A stretch of 64,000 nt of DNA from Escherichia coli (GTDB taxonomy: Bacteria > Pseudomonadota > Gammaproteobacteria > Enterobacterales > Enterobacteriaceae), in NCBI RefSeq assembly GCF_002854065.1, contig NZ_CP024147.1. One strand, written 5' to 3'. The stretch's first letter is position 1. The number at the start of each line of letters is the position of its first letter. Shown one piece after another: positions 15,266 through 60,630 of this stretch. Position numbers and translations under genes: made by a program. Below the pieces are notes generated by a model. It had not been told where the DNA came from and ran no database searches. It saw only the letters and a program-made list of their open reading frames with translations.

Positions 15266-15665
15266 TTTTTCGGTACTACTAAGACTATTCGTTAATGATA
15301 AACCCGCTTCGCTCAGAGAGCGCCGCAGGACATGAACTGAAACCTCATAAGATATTGCGAGAGTCAGACTGAAAATTATCTCAATACTCCAGCGGGTTTG
15401 GCAACTGAATAAATCACCCATCCCTCTGCATATCTGGTCGCTGCAAGCGCGCTGCCTTGCTACCACCGCTCTGGCGATAAATCACCGGGTAAGATTAGCG
15501 TAAAAAAGACAGCAAAATGCCGCCTGAATGATAAATCATCATCATGGAACGCAGGCAGCGAAGAGCACCAACTCTCAAATCGGTACTCCTTGTATGCTAA
15601 ATACCTGCGCGCGTCAAATAGATGAAACACGTTCAGCGTAAAAACATTACCGCTTTTACGGCTGT

Positions 15666-16904
15666 TTACTCACTGGAAACCAGTCGTGGCGTGATAAACA
15701 CCACTAACTCGCGTCGTTCATCTTCTTTTCCGTCATGACGAAATAATTGCCCGAACCAGGGAATGTCGCCAAGCAACGGCACGCTATCCTGACCCGATTT
15801 ATTTTTACGGGTAAAAATGCCGCCCAGCGCCAACGTTTCTCCGCTTTTGACCTCGACCTGCGTTTCGATCTCCTGCTTATCAATCGCCAGCACTTCGCCA
15901 TCGGCCTGCTGTAGCACCTGCCCCGGAACGTTCTGGCTGATGTGTAATTTCAGCCGGATGCGACCTTTTTGTAACACCGTGGGCGTGACCTCCATCCCCA
16001 GGACTGCCTCTTTAAATTCCACCGACGTCGCGCCACTTTCCCCGCTGGAAACTTGATATGGAATTTCGCTCCCCTGTTTAATGCTGGCAGGCTGAAGATG
16101 TGAGGCCAGCAGACGCGGACTAGCGATAATATCCAGCTGCTGTTTTTGTTCGAGCGCAGAAAGCTCAAGATCCAGCAAACGTCCGTTGATGCGCCCAATG
16201 TTAAAACCGACATGCGTTGTCGCCGTCGCTACGGAGAGGTCGCTGCCAAGCGTGGTGACTTGCCCAACGCCACCAGCTTGTTGCGCATCGGCCAGCGTCC
16301 ATTTCACGCCTAACTCACGCAAACTTTTTTCATTAATGGTGACAATATGCGCCGACAGCTCAACCTGCCCGACCGGCAGATCCATTTGCGCTACCCACTG
16401 TTCAAGGGCGCTTAACGCCGTTTTGTTATCTCGTAGCAAAAGGCGATTGGTGCGTTTATCGACGGTCATACTCCCTTTGGCACTCAGTAGCTTTTCCCCA
16501 GCTTTCGCCAGCTCTCCGGCGTCGGCGTATTGCAGAGTAATATTGCGATTTTCCAGCGGCAGATTTGCCTGCGCCCGCGCCTGCTCCGCTTCCTGACGGG
16601 CGATATTGTCATTCTGCCAGGCAATGGAATGCACTGAGAGAATGTTGCCCTCCTGGCGCGTTATCAGTCCGGCGCTTTTCACTACAGTTTGTAGTGCCTG
16701 CTTCCAGGGAACATCTGTTAGATGTAACGACACCGTACCGCTGACGTCTGGCGACACCACCAGGTTCAACTTCTCCTGTTCAGCCAGCGCCTGCAACACC
16801 TGAGCTACCGGAACGTCATCCACCATCAGCGTCACTTTTTGCGGCTTTGCCGCCTGTACGCCGGGTATCAGCATCAACAGTAGTGCGGCTATCCATTGCT
16901 TCAT
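15666..16904 (-). CDS. hofQ: HofQ, secretin-family outer-membrane channel (412 aa)
   Basis: ORF 412 aa, signal peptide; synteny. Confidence 0.93.
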   Translation of the reverse strand: MKQWIAALLLMLIPGVQAAKPQKVTLMVDDVPVAQVLQALAEQEKLNLVVSPDVSGTVSLHLTDVPWKQALQTVVKSAGLITRQEGNILSVHSIAWQNDNIARQEAEQARAQANLPLENRNITLQYADAGELAKAGEKLLSAKGSMTVDKRTNRLLLRDNKTALSALEQWVAQMDLPVGQVELSAHIVTINEKSLRELGVKWTLADAQQAGGVGQVTTLGSDLSVATATTHVGFNIGRINGRLLDLELSALEQKQQLDIIASPRLLASHLQPASIKQGSEIPYQVSSGESGATSVEFKEAVLGMEVTPTVLQKGRIRLKLHISQNVPGQVLQQADGEVLAIDKQEIETQVEVKSGETLALGGIFTRKNKSGQDSVPLLGDIPWFGQLFRHDGKEDERRELVVFITPRLVSSE

Positions 16905-17220
16905 TTGTATCTCCTTGCCGTTGCCACAACCATTGTGGCGGTTCGCAGTTTGTCCCGGTACCCAGCGTTAGTACGTCTGGCGTCAGCTGTAAAATTGTCC
17001 AGCCGTTTTCCAGCACATCGTTTTGCTGCACCCGTCGCCATTTCTTTTGCCCGTCTTTTATTACACCGATGATGCGCTCGCCTCGCCCTACCATCCCCTG
17101 ATAGCGCCACTGGCTAAGTTCGCTAATCCGGCATAGATCTTCCGGCGGTTTAAAAGGGTCACGCATACCGGTTAAAAGGCACAATGCAATACCTGCCAAC
17201 AACCAGCGTTTAACCCTCAT
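16816..17220 (-). CDS. hofP: HofP (134 aa), start at MRVKRWLLAGIALCLL
   Basis: K-12 length; ORF track over-extended. Confidence 0.85.
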   Translation of the reverse strand: MRVKRWLLAGIALCLLTGMRDPFKPPEDLCRISELSQWRYQGMVGRGERIIGVIKDGQKKWRRVQQNDVLENGWTILQLTPDVLTLGTGTNCEPPQWLWQRQGDTNEAMDSRTTVDADTRRTGGKAAKSDADGG

Positions 17221-17650
17221 GCGGCGTCTCCAGTTGTAGGGTGAACAAAAGATCATCACCTTCCACGCTTAATGAAAAACGGCTCACGCTGACGTTGCGC
17301 TCTGCCAGCCGTGTAAATGCCGACGGCACTGCTTCCCACAGCGTTTTCAACGCCAACTCGCCTCCCTGCGCGGATGGATGCCAGGAAACCAGTTGCGCGC
17401 CGGATAACTGAAAATCCAGTGGCGAAAAGGGCAGCGTTTTTTCCTCGCTGAAGGGAGTGGTGTCTACCAGGCGATACAGTGCGGCCCACTGCTGGTGATG
17501 ACTTGCCCGTAGTCGAATTAATGCGTCGCTCTCTTCATGATGTGTCGATGACAGAAAAATGAGCGTAACTAACATCAGCAACCAGACTGCCCAGCAAAGC
17601 TGGCGGAGACGGGGTGATGTGGCGAACCACCAGTCAAAGAACATGTTCAT
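17210..17650 (-). CDS. hofO: HofO (146 aa)
   Basis: ORF 146 aa; synteny. Confidence 0.88.
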   Translation of the reverse strand: MNMFFDWWFATSPRLRQLCWAVWLLMLVTLIFLSSTHHEESDALIRLRASHHQQWAALYRLVDTTPFSEEKTLPFSPLDFQLSGAQLVSWHPSAQGGELALKTLWEAVPSAFTRLAERNVSVSRFSLSVEGDDLLFTLQLETPHEG

Positions 17651-18173
17651 CGCTAACCTTCCTTGTTAACTGATACTCAAATTGCCAGCGTCCCTGCGCA
17701 TCCTGCTGCGTGGCCCCCCGCTGATTGAGATGAAAAGACGCATCCTGGCGGAGTGACGTTTCCAGTGCGTTTAACGCGGTAATGCTTGTTGTCAGCCCCT
17801 TGATCTCCAGCGTTCCCTGCTGCCAGCTTATCGTTGTCAGCCAGGCGTGCTCGGGTAAAAGCGCCGCCAGTGCTTCCAGCGCAGATTGCCAGTCGCGGGT
17901 AAATTGTCGCTGGCGCTGCCGTTGCAAACGCTGTTCGCGTAACTGCTGTTGCTGCAGCAAACGTGGTTTCGTTATCTGTAAGCTGCGGGCGAGTTGTTGT
18001 TCCCCCTGAAGCAAAACGGCGTCTACGCGAGCTTCGGCGCTGCTTGTCAGACGCAGTATTAGCGTTATCCCGACGGCCAGCAGCAGAGGCGCAACGAACA
18101 TCAGCAACCAGAAACGAAGAAAAGCGGTCCGGCGTTGCTGTCGCCAGGGCAAAAAATTAATTGGCGGGTTCAT
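17634..18173 (-). CDS. hofN: HofN (179 aa)
   Basis: ORF 179 aa; synteny. Confidence 0.88.
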   Translation of the reverse strand: MNPPINFLPWRQQRRTAFLRFWLLMFVAPLLLAVGITLILRLTSSAEARVDAVLLQGEQQLARSLQITKPRLLQQQQLREQRLQRQRQRQFTRDWQSALEALAALLPEHAWLTTISWQQGTLEIKGLTTSITALNALETSLRQDASFHLNQRGATQQDAQGRWQFEYQLTRKVSDEHVL

Positions 18174-18952
18174 CAGTACGCCTTCCCAAGCGCCAGCCCC
18201 AGCGCGATGGCAAAGTCTCCACCTGGCGGCGGTAACGGCGGCTGACGAACAGAAACGGCCTCCCAGGGATCAAATCCGCCTTCGCCACATATCGCGACGC
18301 TTTCGGGATCAACGGATAACGCTGCCGCCAGCTCCTTCGCGCTAGTCATCCCCACCGCCAGTTTGCGCCCCCAGCGATAGCGCGTCGCCCACAGCCACTG
18401 TTCGTTATCACGCCAGGCCAGACATTGCTGATGAGAAGGTAAAAAAGGCAGGAATCGCTGTAATGCACTGGCATCCGGGGTGATCGCACTAACATGAACA
18501 CGCAACCTTTCTGCCAGAGTAAGCAGCGTTGCCAGCTCTTTGCTTTGCGCGGCAGTCACGTTATAGGCGGGACTGAGTGAGTCTTCGCTGTAATCGAAGC
18601 GCAGGGAGTCCGGATCCATATCCAGCTCGCGGGCCATCGTCCCGGAAAGCCAGGCCGTTTGCTCCCGCTCACCGAGGGACATCGGCGGGCGCGGAAATGA
18701 CCGCTGTAATGTGCGACTGGCGGGAAACGCCAACATGATGTGATGGCGCTGCGGCAGTTCGCGACTCCACGGTAACAACGTTTTAGCCAGCCGCTGCGCA
18801 TCAACAATCCGCCCATCTTTGATAATGTCGTGCGCCAGCGGCAACCGCCACCAGCGTTGCAAAAAGCATTCTTTTGCGCCCCGCACAATAGCAACCGCTA
18901 CCGCTTCTTGCTGTTGTAAATGCAAACCAATTTGCCAGATCTTAAATGCCAT
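18173..18952 (-). CDS. hofM: HofM (259 aa), start at MAFKIWQIGL
   Basis: K-12 length 259 aa; ATG at 18950..18952. Confidence 0.88.
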   Translation of the reverse strand: MAFKIWQIGLHLQQQEAVAVAIVRGAKECFLQRWWRLPLAHDIIKDGRIVDAQRLAKTLLPWSRELPQRHHIMLAFPASRTLQRSFPRPPMSLGEREQTAWLSGTMARELDMDPDSLRFDYSEDSLSPAYNVTAAQSKELATLLTLAERLRVHVSAITPDASALQRFLPFLPSHQQCLAWRDNEQWLWATRYRWGRKLAVGMTSAKELAAALSVDPESVAICGEGGFDPWEAVSVRQPPLPPPGGDFAIALGLALGKAY

Positions 18953-19071
18953 TGTGATGATCTCCTTATCACCCGTCACTCTGACGGGTATATCAATGCG
19001 TCTGGCTTGCCTTTATACTACCGCGCGTTTGTTTATAAACTGCCCAAATGAAACTAAATGGGAAATTTCCA

Positions 19072-21624
19072 GTGAAGTTCGTAAAGTATTTTTTGATCCT
19101 TGCAGTCTGTTGCATTCTGCTGGGAGCAGGCTCGATTTATGGCCTATACCGCTACATCGAGCCACAACTGCCGGATGTGGCGACATTAAAAGATGTTCGC
19201 CTGCAAATTCCGATGCAGATTTACAGCGCCGATGGCGAGCTGATTGCTCAATACGGTGAGAAACGTCGTATTCCGGTTACGCTGGATCAAATCCCGCCGG
19301 AGATGGTGAAAGCCTTTATCGCGACGGAAGACAGCCGCTTCTACGAGCATCACGGCGTTGACCCGGTGGGGATCTTCCGTGCAGCAAGCGTGGCGCTGTT
19401 CTCCGGCCACGCGTCACAAGGGGCGAGTACCATTACCCAGCAGCTGGCGAGAAACTTCTTCCTCAGTCCAGAACGCACGCTGATGCGTAAGATTAAGGAA
19501 GTCTTCCTCGCGATTCGCATTGAACAGCTGCTGACGAAAGACGAGATCCTCGAGCTTTATCTGAACAAGATTTACCTTGGTTACCGCGCCTATGGTGTCG
19601 GTGCTGCGGCACAAGTCTATTTCGGAAAAACGGTCGACCAACTGACGCTGAACGAAATGGCGGTGATAGCCGGACTGCCGAAAGCGCCTTCCACCTTCAA
19701 CCCGCTCTACTCGATGGATCGTGCCGTCGCGCGGCGTAACGTCGTGCTATCGCGGATGCTGGATGAAGGGTATATCACCCAACAACAGTTCGATCAGACA
19801 CGCACTGAGGCGATTAACGCTAACTATCACGCGCCGGAGATTGCTTTTTCTGCGCCGTACCTGAGCGAAATGGTGCGCCAGGAGATGTATAACCGTTATG
19901 GCGAAAGTGCCTATGAAGACGGTTATCGCATTTACACCACCATCACCCGCAAAGTGCAGCAGGCCGCGCAGCAGGCGGTACGTAATAACGTGCTGGACTA
20001 CGACATGCGCCACGGCTATCGCGGCCCGGCAAATGTGCTGTGGAAAGTGGGCGAGTCGGCGTGGGATAACAACAAGATTACCGATACGCTGAAGGCGCTG
20101 CCGACCTATGGTCCGCTGCTGCCTGCCGCAGTCACCAGCGCCAATCCTCAGGGAGCGACGGCGATGCTGGCGGACGGGTCGACCGTCGCATTGAGTATGG
20201 AAGGCGTTCGCTGGGCGCGTCCTTACCGTTCGGATACTCAGCAGGGACCGACGCCGCGTAAAGTGACCGATGTTCTGCAAACGGGTCAGCAAATCTGGGT
20301 TCGTCAGGTTGGCGATGCATGGTGGCTGGCACAAGTGCCGGAAGTGAACTCGGCACTGGTGTCGATCAATCCGCAAAACGGTGCCGTTATGGCGTTGGTC
20401 GGTGGCTTTGATTTCAATCAGAGCAAGTTTAACCGCGCCACCCAGGCACTGCGTCAGGTAGGTTCCAACATCAAACCGTTCCTCTACACCGCGGCGATGG
20501 ATAAAGGTCTGACGCTGGCAAGTATGTTGAACGATGTGCCAATTTCTCGCTGGGATGCAGGTGCCGGTTCTGACTGGCAGCCGAAGAACTCACCACCGCA
20601 GTATGCCGGTCCAATTCGCTTACGTCAGGGGCTGGGTCAGTCGAAAAACGTGGTGATGGTACGCGCAATGCGGGCGATGGGCGTCGACTACGCTGCAGAA
20701 TATCTGCAACGCTTCGGCTTCCCGGCGCAAAACATTGTCCACACCGAATCGCTGGCGCTGGGTTCAGCGTCCTTCACCCCAATGCAGGTGGCGCGCGGCT
20801 ACGCGGTCATGGCGAACGGCGGCTTCCTGGTGGACCCGTGGTTTATCAGCAAAATTGAAAACGATCAGGGCGGCGTGATTTTCGAAGCGAAACCGAAAGT
20901 AGCTTGCCCGGAATGTGATATTCCGGTGATTTACGGTGATACGCAGAAATCGAACGTGCTGGAAAATAACAATGTTGAAGATGTCGCTATCTCCCGCGAG
21001 CAGCAGAATGTTTCTGTACCAATGCCGCAGCTGGAGCAGGCAAATCAGGCGTTAGTTGCGAAGACTGGCGCGCAGGAGTACGCACCGCACGTCATCAACA
21101 CTCCGCTGGCATTCCTGATTAAGAGTGCTTTGAACACCAATATCTTTGGTGAGCCAGGCTGGCAGGGTACCGGCTGGCGTGCAGGTCGTGATTTGCAGCG
21201 TCGCGATATCGGCGGGAAAACCGGTACCACTAACAGTTCGAAAGATGCGTGGTTCTCGGGTTACGGTCCGGGCGTTGTGACCTCGGTCTGGATTGGCTTT
21301 GATGATCACCGTCGTAATCTCGGTCATACAACGGCTTCCGGAGCGATTAAAGATCAGATCTCAGGTTACGAAGGCGGTGCCAAGAGTGCCCAGCCTGCAT
21401 GGGACGCTTATATGAAAGCCGTTCTTGAAGGTGTGCCGGAGCAGCCGCTGACGCCGCCGCCGGGTATTGTGACGGTGAATATCGATCGCAGCACCGGGCA
21501 GTTAGCTAATGGTGGCAACAGCCGCGAAGAGTATTTCATCGAAGGTACGCAGCCGACACAACAGGCGGTGCACGAGGTGGGAACGACCATTATCGATAAT
21601 GGCGAGGCACAGGAATTGTTCTGA
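19072..21624 (+). CDS. mrcA: Penicillin-binding protein 1A (850 aa), GTG start
   Basis: Protein begins (V)KFVKYFLILAVCCILL as in K-12 PBP1a; ORF-track ATG at 19048 is 8 codons upstream. Confidence 0.95.
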   Translation: MKFVKYFLILAVCCILLGAGSIYGLYRYIEPQLPDVATLKDVRLQIPMQIYSADGELIAQYGEKRRIPVTLDQIPPEMVKAFIATEDSRFYEHHGVDPVGIFRAASVALFSGHASQGASTITQQLARNFFLSPERTLMRKIKEVFLAIRIEQLLTKDEILELYLNKIYLGYRAYGVGAAAQVYFGKTVDQLTLNEMAVIAGLPKAPSTFNPLYSMDRAVARRNVVLSRMLDEGYITQQQFDQTRTEAINANYHAPEIAFSAPYLSEMVRQEMYNRYGESAYEDGYRIYTTITRKVQQAAQQAVRNNVLDYDMRHGYRGPANVLWKVGESAWDNNKITDTLKALPTYGPLLPAAVTSANPQGATAMLADGSTVALSMEGVRWARPYRSDTQQGPTPRKVTDVLQTGQQIWVRQVGDAWWLAQVPEVNSALVSINPQNGAVMALVGGFDFNQSKFNRATQALRQVGSNIKPFLYTAAMDKGLTLASMLNDVPISRWDAGAGSDWQPKNSPPQYAGPIRLRQGLGQSKNVVMVRAMRAMGVDYAAEYLQRFGFPAQNIVHTESLALGSASFTPMQVARGYAVMANGGFLVDPWFISKIENDQGGVIFEAKPKVACPECDIPVIYGDTQKSNVLENNNVEDVAISREQQNVSVPMPQLEQANQALVAKTGAQEYAPHVINTPLAFLIKSALNTNIFGEPGWQGTGWRAGRDLQRRDIGGKTGTTNSSKDAWFSGYGPGVVTSVWIGFDDHRRNLGHTTASGAIKDQISGYEGGAKSAQPAWDAYMKAVLEGVPEQPLTPPPGIVTVNIDRSTGQLANGGNSREEYFIEGTQPTQQAVHEVGTTIIDNGEAQELF

Positions 21625-60534: not shown

Positions 60535-60630
60535 GCCTGATGCGCTACGCTTATCAGGCCTACGTGGTTTATGCAATATGTTGAATTTGCATGATTTTGT
60601 AGGCCTGAGAAGGCGTTCACGCCGCATCAG
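60535..60630. repeat. BIME: two REP units in inverted orientation (GCCTGATGCGCTACGCTTATCAGGCCTAC and GTAGGCCTGAGAAGGCGTTCACGCCGCATCAGG)
   Basis: REP consensus recognised downstream of glpD. Confidence 0.75.

Follow-up and report, generated by a model that had tools for sequence, protein, structure and literature searches.

The question raised by positions 15666-18952 of the window (the whole 64,000-nucleotide stretch of Escherichia coli DNA analysed here, from contig NZ_CP024147.1 of assembly GCF_002854065.1) is whether the five overlapping genes found there make up a complete pilus and DNA-uptake operon, and how its overlaps and its control should be understood. As judged from sequence alone, the stretch is very probably the intact E. 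coli hofMNOPQ operon of the type IVa pilus/competence kind, in the layout of K-12. Five consecutive minus-strand genes fill it, as seen in both the open reading frame (ORF) list and the sequence:

18173-18952, minus strand: hofM, 259 amino acids (aa); predicted cytoplasmic protein with a PilM-like actin fold, ~100 aa shorter than PilM

17634-18173, minus strand: hofN, 179 aa; PilN-like bitopic inner-membrane protein

17210-17650, minus strand: hofO, 146 aa; in the PilO position, HofO family

16816-17220, minus strand: hofP, 134 aa; predicted PilP-like periplasmic β-domain protein with a disordered tail

15666-16904, minus strand: hofQ, 412 aa; outer-membrane secretin, a short PilQ

The former names of these genes are yrfDCBA-hofQ.

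An earlier note on this DNA had described five minus-strand genes overlapping by 1, 17, 11 and 89 nucleotides (nt), and its coordinates and lengths are exact in the ORF list and the sequence. Its claim that all five genes are intact was borne out by an alignment to K-12 free of indels, frameshifts and internal stops, and the identification as hofMNOPQ is confirmed by the same gene models in strain 100416 (annotated by the Prokaryotic Genome Annotation Pipeline, PGAP) and in K-12 MG1655. In the latter the operon is b3395-b3391; the five models lie at a constant offset of 13200 and are equal to those of the window in protein length (259/179/146/134/412 aa), starts, stops and overlaps (1/17/11/89 nt), with mrcA divergent and aroK-aroB-damX downstream, as in the window. 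The two copies differ by 16 aa substitutions (five in HofM, five in HofN, three in HofO, none in HofP and three in HofQ) and by ~2% nt divergence, rich in synonymous changes, with gene-by-gene nt identities of 97.8-100%. Compared with K-12, the ratio of non-synonymous to synonymous divergence (dN/dS, or ω) lies at 0.05-0.23 in hofM, N, O and Q, and the two hofP copies are 100% identical; against other Escherichia species the ratio is 0.02-0.35 overall. It was also observed that dS against K-12 is higher for hofM, N, O and Q (0.04-0.07) than for aroK, aroB and mrcA (0.01-0.04).

The longest ORFs would start hofM at GTG 18979 and hofP at GTG 17259; both were ruled out, the starts conserved across ~75 species being ATG 18952 and ATG 17220, respectively. 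A megablast search with 15500-19200 found the locus in 5425 of 5426 complete E. coli genomes. Strains 100416 and CUWW06 are 100% identical to the window over this interval, only 28 of the 5426 records are at least 99% identical, and the remainder lie at 95-99%; the closest relatives are isolates from human stool and wastewater. In 100416 the PGAP order is hofQ, hofP, hofO, hofN, hofM, with aroK-aroB-damX as neighbours at one end and divergent mrcA at the other. The same search gave 5428 matching places in total, one of them in a record that is labelled a plasmid; a single complete genome was without the locus. The operon is a named, annotated and experimentally studied one, and the present copy is an ordinary allele with nothing new in kind. 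The value for annotation lies in the confirmation of the K-12 start codons and of the operon as core in E. coli, and the specialist interest lies in the hofP/hofQ overlap as a likely neutral by-product and in the departure of HofM, HofO and HofP from canonical PilM, PilO and PilP.

Family, profile and fold matches support the earlier suggestion that the products are of the PilMNOPQ/ComABCDE kind. Gene order and roles are as in the PilMNOPQ systems of Pseudomonas aeruginosa, Myxococcus xanthus and Thermus thermophilus, with HofN carrying the PilN domain and HofQ the PilQ secretin core. HofQ scores 161.5 bits with Pfam Secretin (PF00263), for which the cut-off is 27.5, and it also passes the cut-offs of STN (36.6 bits) and Secretin_N (45.2 bits). 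Among NCBIfam models, PRK10560 (DNA uptake porin HofQ) gives 856 bits, and TIGR02515 (IV_pilus_PilQ), whose cut-off is 284, gives 448 bits. Its six best PDB matches are all PilQ chains, the top one being the PilQ-family type IV pilus secretin 6w6m (E 2e-74), with likeness over HofQ residues 23-409. HofQ residues 27-182 match 2y3m (HofQ periplasmic domains), and the N-terminus, MKQWIAALLLMLIPGVQA, fits a signal peptide ahead of the N0/N1 domains. At 571 aa, 6w6m is longer than HofQ, and its N-terminal ~155 residues have no counterpart there. The alignment begins at residue 158 at the earliest in PilQ chains of 571-745 aa, so that only the C-terminal two-thirds of PilQ are covered, and Pfam found no AMIN domain of the N-terminal extension of long PilQ in HofQ. 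With 412 aa against the 714-745 aa of PilQ, and without the N-terminal extension of the latter, HofQ is a short competence-type secretin.

HofN, with 39.1 bits, passes the 22.8-bit cut-off of Pfam PilN (PF05137), and its translation begins MNPPINFLPWR (the INFLPWR motif, MNPPINFLPWRQQRR), followed by a hydrophobic helix. An N-terminal PilN peptide of the INLLPxR type binds PilM, as seen in the PilM:PilN structures 2ych and 5eou. A HofM profile built from 73 orthologues matches PilM chains only (3jc8_M at E 3.4e-5 and 2ych at E 0.032). The AlphaFold2 model of HofM has a predicted local distance difference test score (pLDDT) of 91 and a predicted template modelling score (pTM) of 0.89; its top Foldseek match is P. 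aeruginosa PilM (E 1e-13, query template modelling score TMq 0.71), followed by the cytoplasmic domain of EpsL/GspL, T. thermophilus PilM and FtsA, and it superposes on PilM 5eoy, 2ych and 3jc8_M. The modelling supports HofM as a remote PilM homologue, with a predicted actin fold of a shortened PilM/GspL-like type. At ~100 aa less than PilM, HofM is nearer in size to cytoplasmic GspL.

HofP belongs to its own Pfam family (HofP, PF10748; 266.7 bits). Its AlphaFold2 model contains a β-domain at about residues 38-101 (pLDDT 84-92), which superposes on PilP, and a tail (residues 113-134) of pLDDT below 50 that is predicted to be disordered. The top 11 Foldseek matches are either PilP (3jc8_P, 2ivw, 2lc4 and 2y4y, from three organisms) or the homology region (HR) domains of GspC/LspC, and the top sequence match of the HofP profile is again PilP, 3jc8_P, at E 0.02. 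Modelling thus supports HofP as a protein with a predicted PilP/GspC-like β-sandwich (HR) domain; the HR domain of PilP contacts the secretin N0 domain. The sole Pfam match of HofO is PF25319, the 'HofO EspM-like domain', at 89.6 bits. The place of HofO between N and P and its N-terminal transmembrane helix fit the PilO role, and it is from this position and topology that we infer homology to PilO.

Published studies link the operon to control by Sxy/CRP, to the uptake of DNA and to the assembly of pili (PMC1635313, PMC3330819, bioRxiv 10.1101/856302). In the mechanism proposed here, hofMNOPQ would encode the alignment subcomplex and the outer-membrane pore of a type IVa pilus/competence machine, in which HofM would be cytoplasmic, HofN and HofO bitopic in the inner membrane, HofP periplasmic and HofQ the short PilQ secretin. 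Together with ppdD-hofBC, ppdAB-ygdB-ppdC and gspO encoded elsewhere, this machine would assemble PpdD pili and let DNA cross the outer membrane, and CRP with cyclic AMP (cAMP) and Sxy would switch the operon on at weak CRP-S sites in the 5' coding region of mrcA.

The position of these control sites differs from that suggested earlier, namely a CRP-S (Sxy-dependent) site upstream of hofM in 18953-19071. This was not borne out, as no 16-mer in that interval lies within 3 mismatches of TGCGA-N6-TCGCA. Two CRP-N-like matches, each with 3 mismatches (18950-18971 and 18977-18998), were rejected; they are without C6/G17 and overlap the hofM Shine-Dalgarno (SD) sequence and a hairpin. In K-12, a yrfD (hofM) promoter fragment bound CRP weakly in an electrophoretic mobility shift assay (EMSA), two CRP-S sites sit at the ends of that fragment, and the distal one is placed at -246 in E. 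coli by the legend to Fig. 4 (PMC1635313). The corresponding features of the window are as follows:

19105-19228, no strand assigned: equivalent of the K-12 EMSA fragment; primers yrfDF and yrfDR of PMC1635313 map here, inside mrcA, and the sequence is identical to K-12

19118-19139, no strand assigned: candidate proximal CRP-S site, TAAATCGAGCCTGCTCCCAGCA in the hof sense; mrcA codons 16-23

19199-19220, no strand assigned: candidate distal CRP-S site, ATCTGCATCGGAATTTGCAGGC in the hof sense; inside mrcA, with C6 and G17

The 22-mer at 19118-19139 is the best CRP-S-like match at the proximal end of the fragment and is near-invariant in 75 species; one of its halves has C6 and the other has G6, a pattern that matches the description of Enterobacteriaceae sites (PMC1635313). 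The proximal edge of 19199-19220 lies exactly 246 nt from the hofM ATG, and synonymous-site conservation there is at background (0.55). On the strength of the published K-12 experiments and of the mapping of the primers and the -246 position, the CRP-S sites would lie inside the divergent mrcA coding region, with both 22-mers as candidates. For annotation this means that Sxy/CRP-S sites should be sought within mrcA and not in the intergenic spacer.

In K-12, yrfD is induced 16-fold by Sxy, an effect abolished without crp or cyaA, and in laboratory culture transcription of the operon is poor or below detection (PMC1635313). Since the window is identical to K-12 throughout the upstream region (18930-19282), this Sxy/CRP/cAMP induction should carry over to the present strain. 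The orthologous comABCDE operon of Haemophilus influenzae belongs to the CRP-S (Sxy-dependent) regulon, and its CRP-S site likewise overlaps an upstream ORF; it has one such site and an added comF, whereas two sites are predicted in Enterobacteriaceae (PMC1635313). No CRP-S-type motif was found in Pseudomonas pilM-Q promoters (PMC1635313). Moreover, H. influenzae is naturally transformable, whereas uptake in E. coli is Sxy-forced and hofQ-dependent (PMC3330819).

Several results weigh against the identification of the operon and the placing of its control sites. HofM fails the Pfam PilM model, and even with E-values of up to 0.01 allowed no PilM family was matched; the only Pfam match of HofM is T2SSL at 17.2 bits, below cut-off, a single-sequence PDB search gave nothing meaningful, and HofM, HofN, HofO and HofP matched no NCBIfam model. 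In the profile alignment the PilM motif 'GLDIGS' pairs with 'GLHLQQ' in HofM, so that the phosphate-1 Asp is replaced by His, and this His11 is invariant in the 73 orthologues. A HofO profile (76 orthologues) finds no PilO and has no PDB sequence match, HofO being unrecognisable as PilO by sequence. Unlike PilP, HofP has no conserved lipobox Cys in the signal-peptide region among 79 orthologues; their N-terminal consensus reads MxxKxxxLxxxxLxLLTGMRDPF, with C30 and C92 as the invariant Cys residues. By hand reading, the IALC of E. coli HofP, which has Leu at -1, does not form a canonical lipobox. Both CRP-S candidates have 3 mismatches to the TGCGA-N6-TCGCA core, and matches to this core are not enriched in the window, with none of 2 or fewer mismatches near hofM. 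The constraint on hofM, N, O and P (ω 0.08-0.35) is weaker than that on hofQ (ω 0.02-0.04), although still purifying. Finally, the E. albertii type strain NBRC 107761 (L005) has nonsense codons at hofO codon 70 and hofP codon 34.

In NBRC 107761 hofO and hofP show no indels relative to the window, and hofM, hofN and hofQ are still open, which looks like lineage-specific operon decay. Citrobacter koseri NCTC10786 (L039) has many frameshifts, which are either real or assembly errors. Because of these nonsense codons and frameshifts it is concluded that the operon can decay in some lineages; it is not decayed in the window, nor in E. coli generally. Within Escherichia it was observed that HofN, HofO and HofP diverge far more than HofQ (window against loci L003-L007), with HofN at 77-88% identity and HofQ at 97% in the E. 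albertii, E. whittamii and cryptic-clade representatives.

What, then, is the machine for? One alternative, which we hold to be rather unlikely, is that its main natural role is the building of adhesive pili of the PpdD/HCP type for host colonisation and not DNA nutrition or competence. Uropathogenic E. coli (UPEC) ΔhofQ strains colonise the kidney less well, with a defect at day 7 that was rescued by plasmid-borne hofQ; in cell culture, however, the mutants had no adhesion or invasion defect (PMC2649431). A hofM-hofQ fragment was part of a plasmid built for PpdD pilus assembly and expression in E. coli, and the stool and wastewater origin of the closest relatives of the window would also fit a role in colonisation. 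Sxy-dependent DNA uptake in E. coli, on the other hand, needs hofQ (PMC3330819), and Palchevskiy and Finkel are cited as having shown that growth on DNA needs competence-gene homologues. Pili and DNA uptake share one machine, moreover, and the two roles are not mutually exclusive. From the published evidence on hofQ, DNA uptake and pili, the preferred reading is that the machine is real and usable for both pili and DNA entry; its natural roles cannot be ranked, nor pilus-based colonisation told from DNA uptake, by sequence.

The second question concerns the gene overlaps, in which the earlier note had seen tight translational coupling throughout. Related loci were collected by a HofQ scan of species-representative genomes, which gave 80 Enterobacteriaceae loci, and in every locus the five genes were called from their similarity together with the closest conserved start. 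The junctions and the translation start of the first gene in the window are:

M/N overlap, 1 nt, minus strand: the hofM stop TGA 18175-18173 shares A18173 with the hofN ATG 18173-18171

N/O overlap, 17 nt, minus strand: hofO ATG from 17650, hofN stop to 17634

O/P overlap, 11 nt, minus strand: hofP ATG from 17220, hofO stop to 17210

P/Q overlap, 89 nt, minus strand: hofQ ATG from 16904, hofP stop TGA 16818-16816

18962-18967, minus strand: hofM SD, AAGGAG 9 nt ahead of the ATG

The O/P overlap is 11 nt in 65 of 79 species and the N/O overlap 17 nt in 45 of 79; at M/N, 59 of 78 species have 1 or 4 nt. P/Q was scored in 76 species, of which 62 have an overlap of 77-98 nt, including 35 with exactly 89 nt. 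These overlaps are kept though HofM, N, O and P drop to 30-55% identity in genera other than Escherichia and Citrobacter, where HofQ stays at 67-88%. As the lengths recur across ~80 species, the overlap pattern is not due to chance. The SD of hofM, GATAAGGAGATC, is kept in nearly all species aligned. Each internal gene has an SD of its own within the preceding gene: GGAAGG 7 nt before hofN, AAGGAAGG 6 nt before hofO, GGAG 7 nt before hofP and AAGGAG 6 nt before hofQ, the best consensus, AAGGAG, being common to hofM and hofQ.

Stop and start codons overlap at all four junctions, as in a coupled operon. Coupling is plausible at the 1-, 17- and 11-nt junctions, and because the cistrons are packed without spacers, each with its SD inside the preceding gene, translation from M through N and O to P is probably linked. 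The claim does not hold for P/Q, where the stop lies too far beyond the start for termination-reinitiation. It could be argued that all four overlaps, the 89-nt one included, were selected for tight coupling that fixes subunit stoichiometry; the parts of PilMNOPQ work as a stoichiometric complex, and the overlap lengths are strikingly conserved, as the counts above for 11, 17 and 89 nt show. This we consider improbable, since every start has its own SD, with that of hofQ a full AAGGAG at 6-nt spacing, since a stop 89 nt beyond the next start is unable to drive reinitiation, and since 13 species have a P/Q overlap of either 4-62 nt or 122-140 nt. The remaining evidence against selection at this junction comes from the overlap itself:

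16816-16904, minus strand: dual-coding overlap of HofP residues 106-134 over HofQ residues 1-30

The hofP stop TGA spans hofQ codons Asp29-Asp30 (GAT GAC), at the conserved start of the N0 domain, so the conserved position of the stop follows from these two hofQ codons. Inside the overlap, where the third positions of hofQ codons serve as first positions in hofP, their conservation is 0.54, and downstream of it 0.50-0.51. Past a W-x-W-x-R-x-G motif, little is conserved in the HofP tails save for residues fixed by the hofQ frame. Against other Escherichia species the tail has a dN of 0.09-0.12, above its dS of 0.02-0.08, and the HofP core has a dN of 0.02-0.04 and a dS of 0.20-0.34; no selection on the tail is seen in the hofP frame. 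In 10 of 76 species hofP ends earlier, giving overlaps of 4 nt (ATGA; L049 and L052), 38 nt (L044-L046) or 59-62 nt (five others), and in three species it ends later, with an overlap of 122 or 140 nt. Given the predicted disorder of the tail, the lack of extra constraint at hofQ wobble positions, the excess of dN over dS and the variable length, the likeliest reading of the P/Q overlap is a HofP C-terminus that runs on neutrally over the hofQ signal-peptide codons, not a coupling device. The length of the HofP tail may be set by synonymous codon choice at hofQ Asp29, the tail being an unselected overprint of hofQ.

The region upstream of hofM raises a third question, as it contains a conserved block:

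18990-19136, no strand assigned: conserved divergent control block, comprising the hofM leader, the mrcA promoter and 5' untranslated region (UTR) and mrcA codons 1-22

Mean identity to the window is 0.94 in this block, and 80% of its columns are at least 95% identical (75 species). Over the first 20 mrcA codons, third-position identity is 0.86-0.93, and further in it is ~0.55. The block contains the proximal CRP-S candidate, and it might be taken as a shared bidirectional switch linking synthesis of penicillin-binding protein 1a (PBP1a) to expression of the pilus/DNA-uptake machine, which we regard as very unlikely. One possible form of such a switch would be mutually exclusive face-to-face promoters on the quasi-palindrome TTTATAAAC...TATAAA. 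This element (19039-19012), as read by hand, gives a -35 TTTATA and a -10 TATAAA separated by 16 nt on both strands. No stable RNA fold was detected in 18990-19136 (minimum free energy z-scores of -0.75 in the hof sense and +0.21 in the mrcA sense), and there was no Rfam match at gathering thresholds in the hofM upstream region. As a control, the aroK promoter/leader (15266-15404) and first aroK codons proved equally conserved, and on this ground the conservation of 18990-19136 is probably ordinary promoter constraint, not exceptional. Two coding alternatives were also rejected. A 57-aa minus-strand ORF (19013-19186) was excluded as the cause of the conservation, since only mrcA 3-periodicity is seen upstream of 19136, and an in-frame mrcA ATG further upstream (19048) is unconserved, the conserved start being GTG 19072.

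That the operon is a functionless relic turning into a pseudogene cluster in this strain is hardly credible: its poor or undetectable transcription in the laboratory (PMC1635313), the failure to detect natural transformation in any tested E. coli (PMC3330819), a hofMNOP dN/dS 3-5 times higher than that of hofQ or the flanking genes, and the nonsense or frameshift lesions of the E. albertii and C. koseri representatives are all in keeping with it, but all five frames are open with dN/dS of at most 0.35, the locus is retained in all but one of the E. coli genomes, its architecture and control region are conserved across ~75 species, and hofQ has published phenotypes (PMC3330819, PMC2649431).

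Smaller elements lie at either end of the operon:

18972-18988, minus strand: leader hairpin CCCGTCA-GAG-TGACGGG, directly 5' of the hofM SD

15649-15662, minus strand: terminator-like hairpin and T-run, 4 nt past the hofQ stop, from a consensus scan

In the leader hairpin the paired cells make up 76%, a share that does not exceed 56% when the pairing is slid, and 31 double-sided changes were counted, against 18±4 in shuffles, which gives modest covariation support. RNAalifold returned no consensus structure at this hairpin, and the element is missing in some genera, including Klebsiella-type loci. In three species, insertions of ~30-125 nt occur exactly at this spot. The hairpin at 15649-15662 is the probable end of the operon; it is weak, with a 5-bp stem, a total count not above that of shuffles and a sequence unconserved between species.

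In the spacer between hofQ and aroK, which is otherwise variable, a 45-nt patch at 15570-15615 (minus strand; TTGACGCGCGCAGGTATTTAGCATACAAGGAGTACCGATTTGAGAG) is kept in ~70 species. The patch holds AAGGAG followed by TTG, and K-12 annotates nothing there; it could be an upstream promoter element of aroK or a tiny ORF. Further on, at 15375-15404 (minus strand), a highly conserved stretch upstream of aroK contains a strong promoter-like sequence, TTGCCA-18-GATAAT with a TG extension (10 of 12), which is presumably an aroK promoter. Over the whole window, the only Rfam match at gathering level is the small RNA (sRNA) ES036 (CssrF) at 60556-60598 on the minus strand, with 39.3 bits against a threshold of 37.6.

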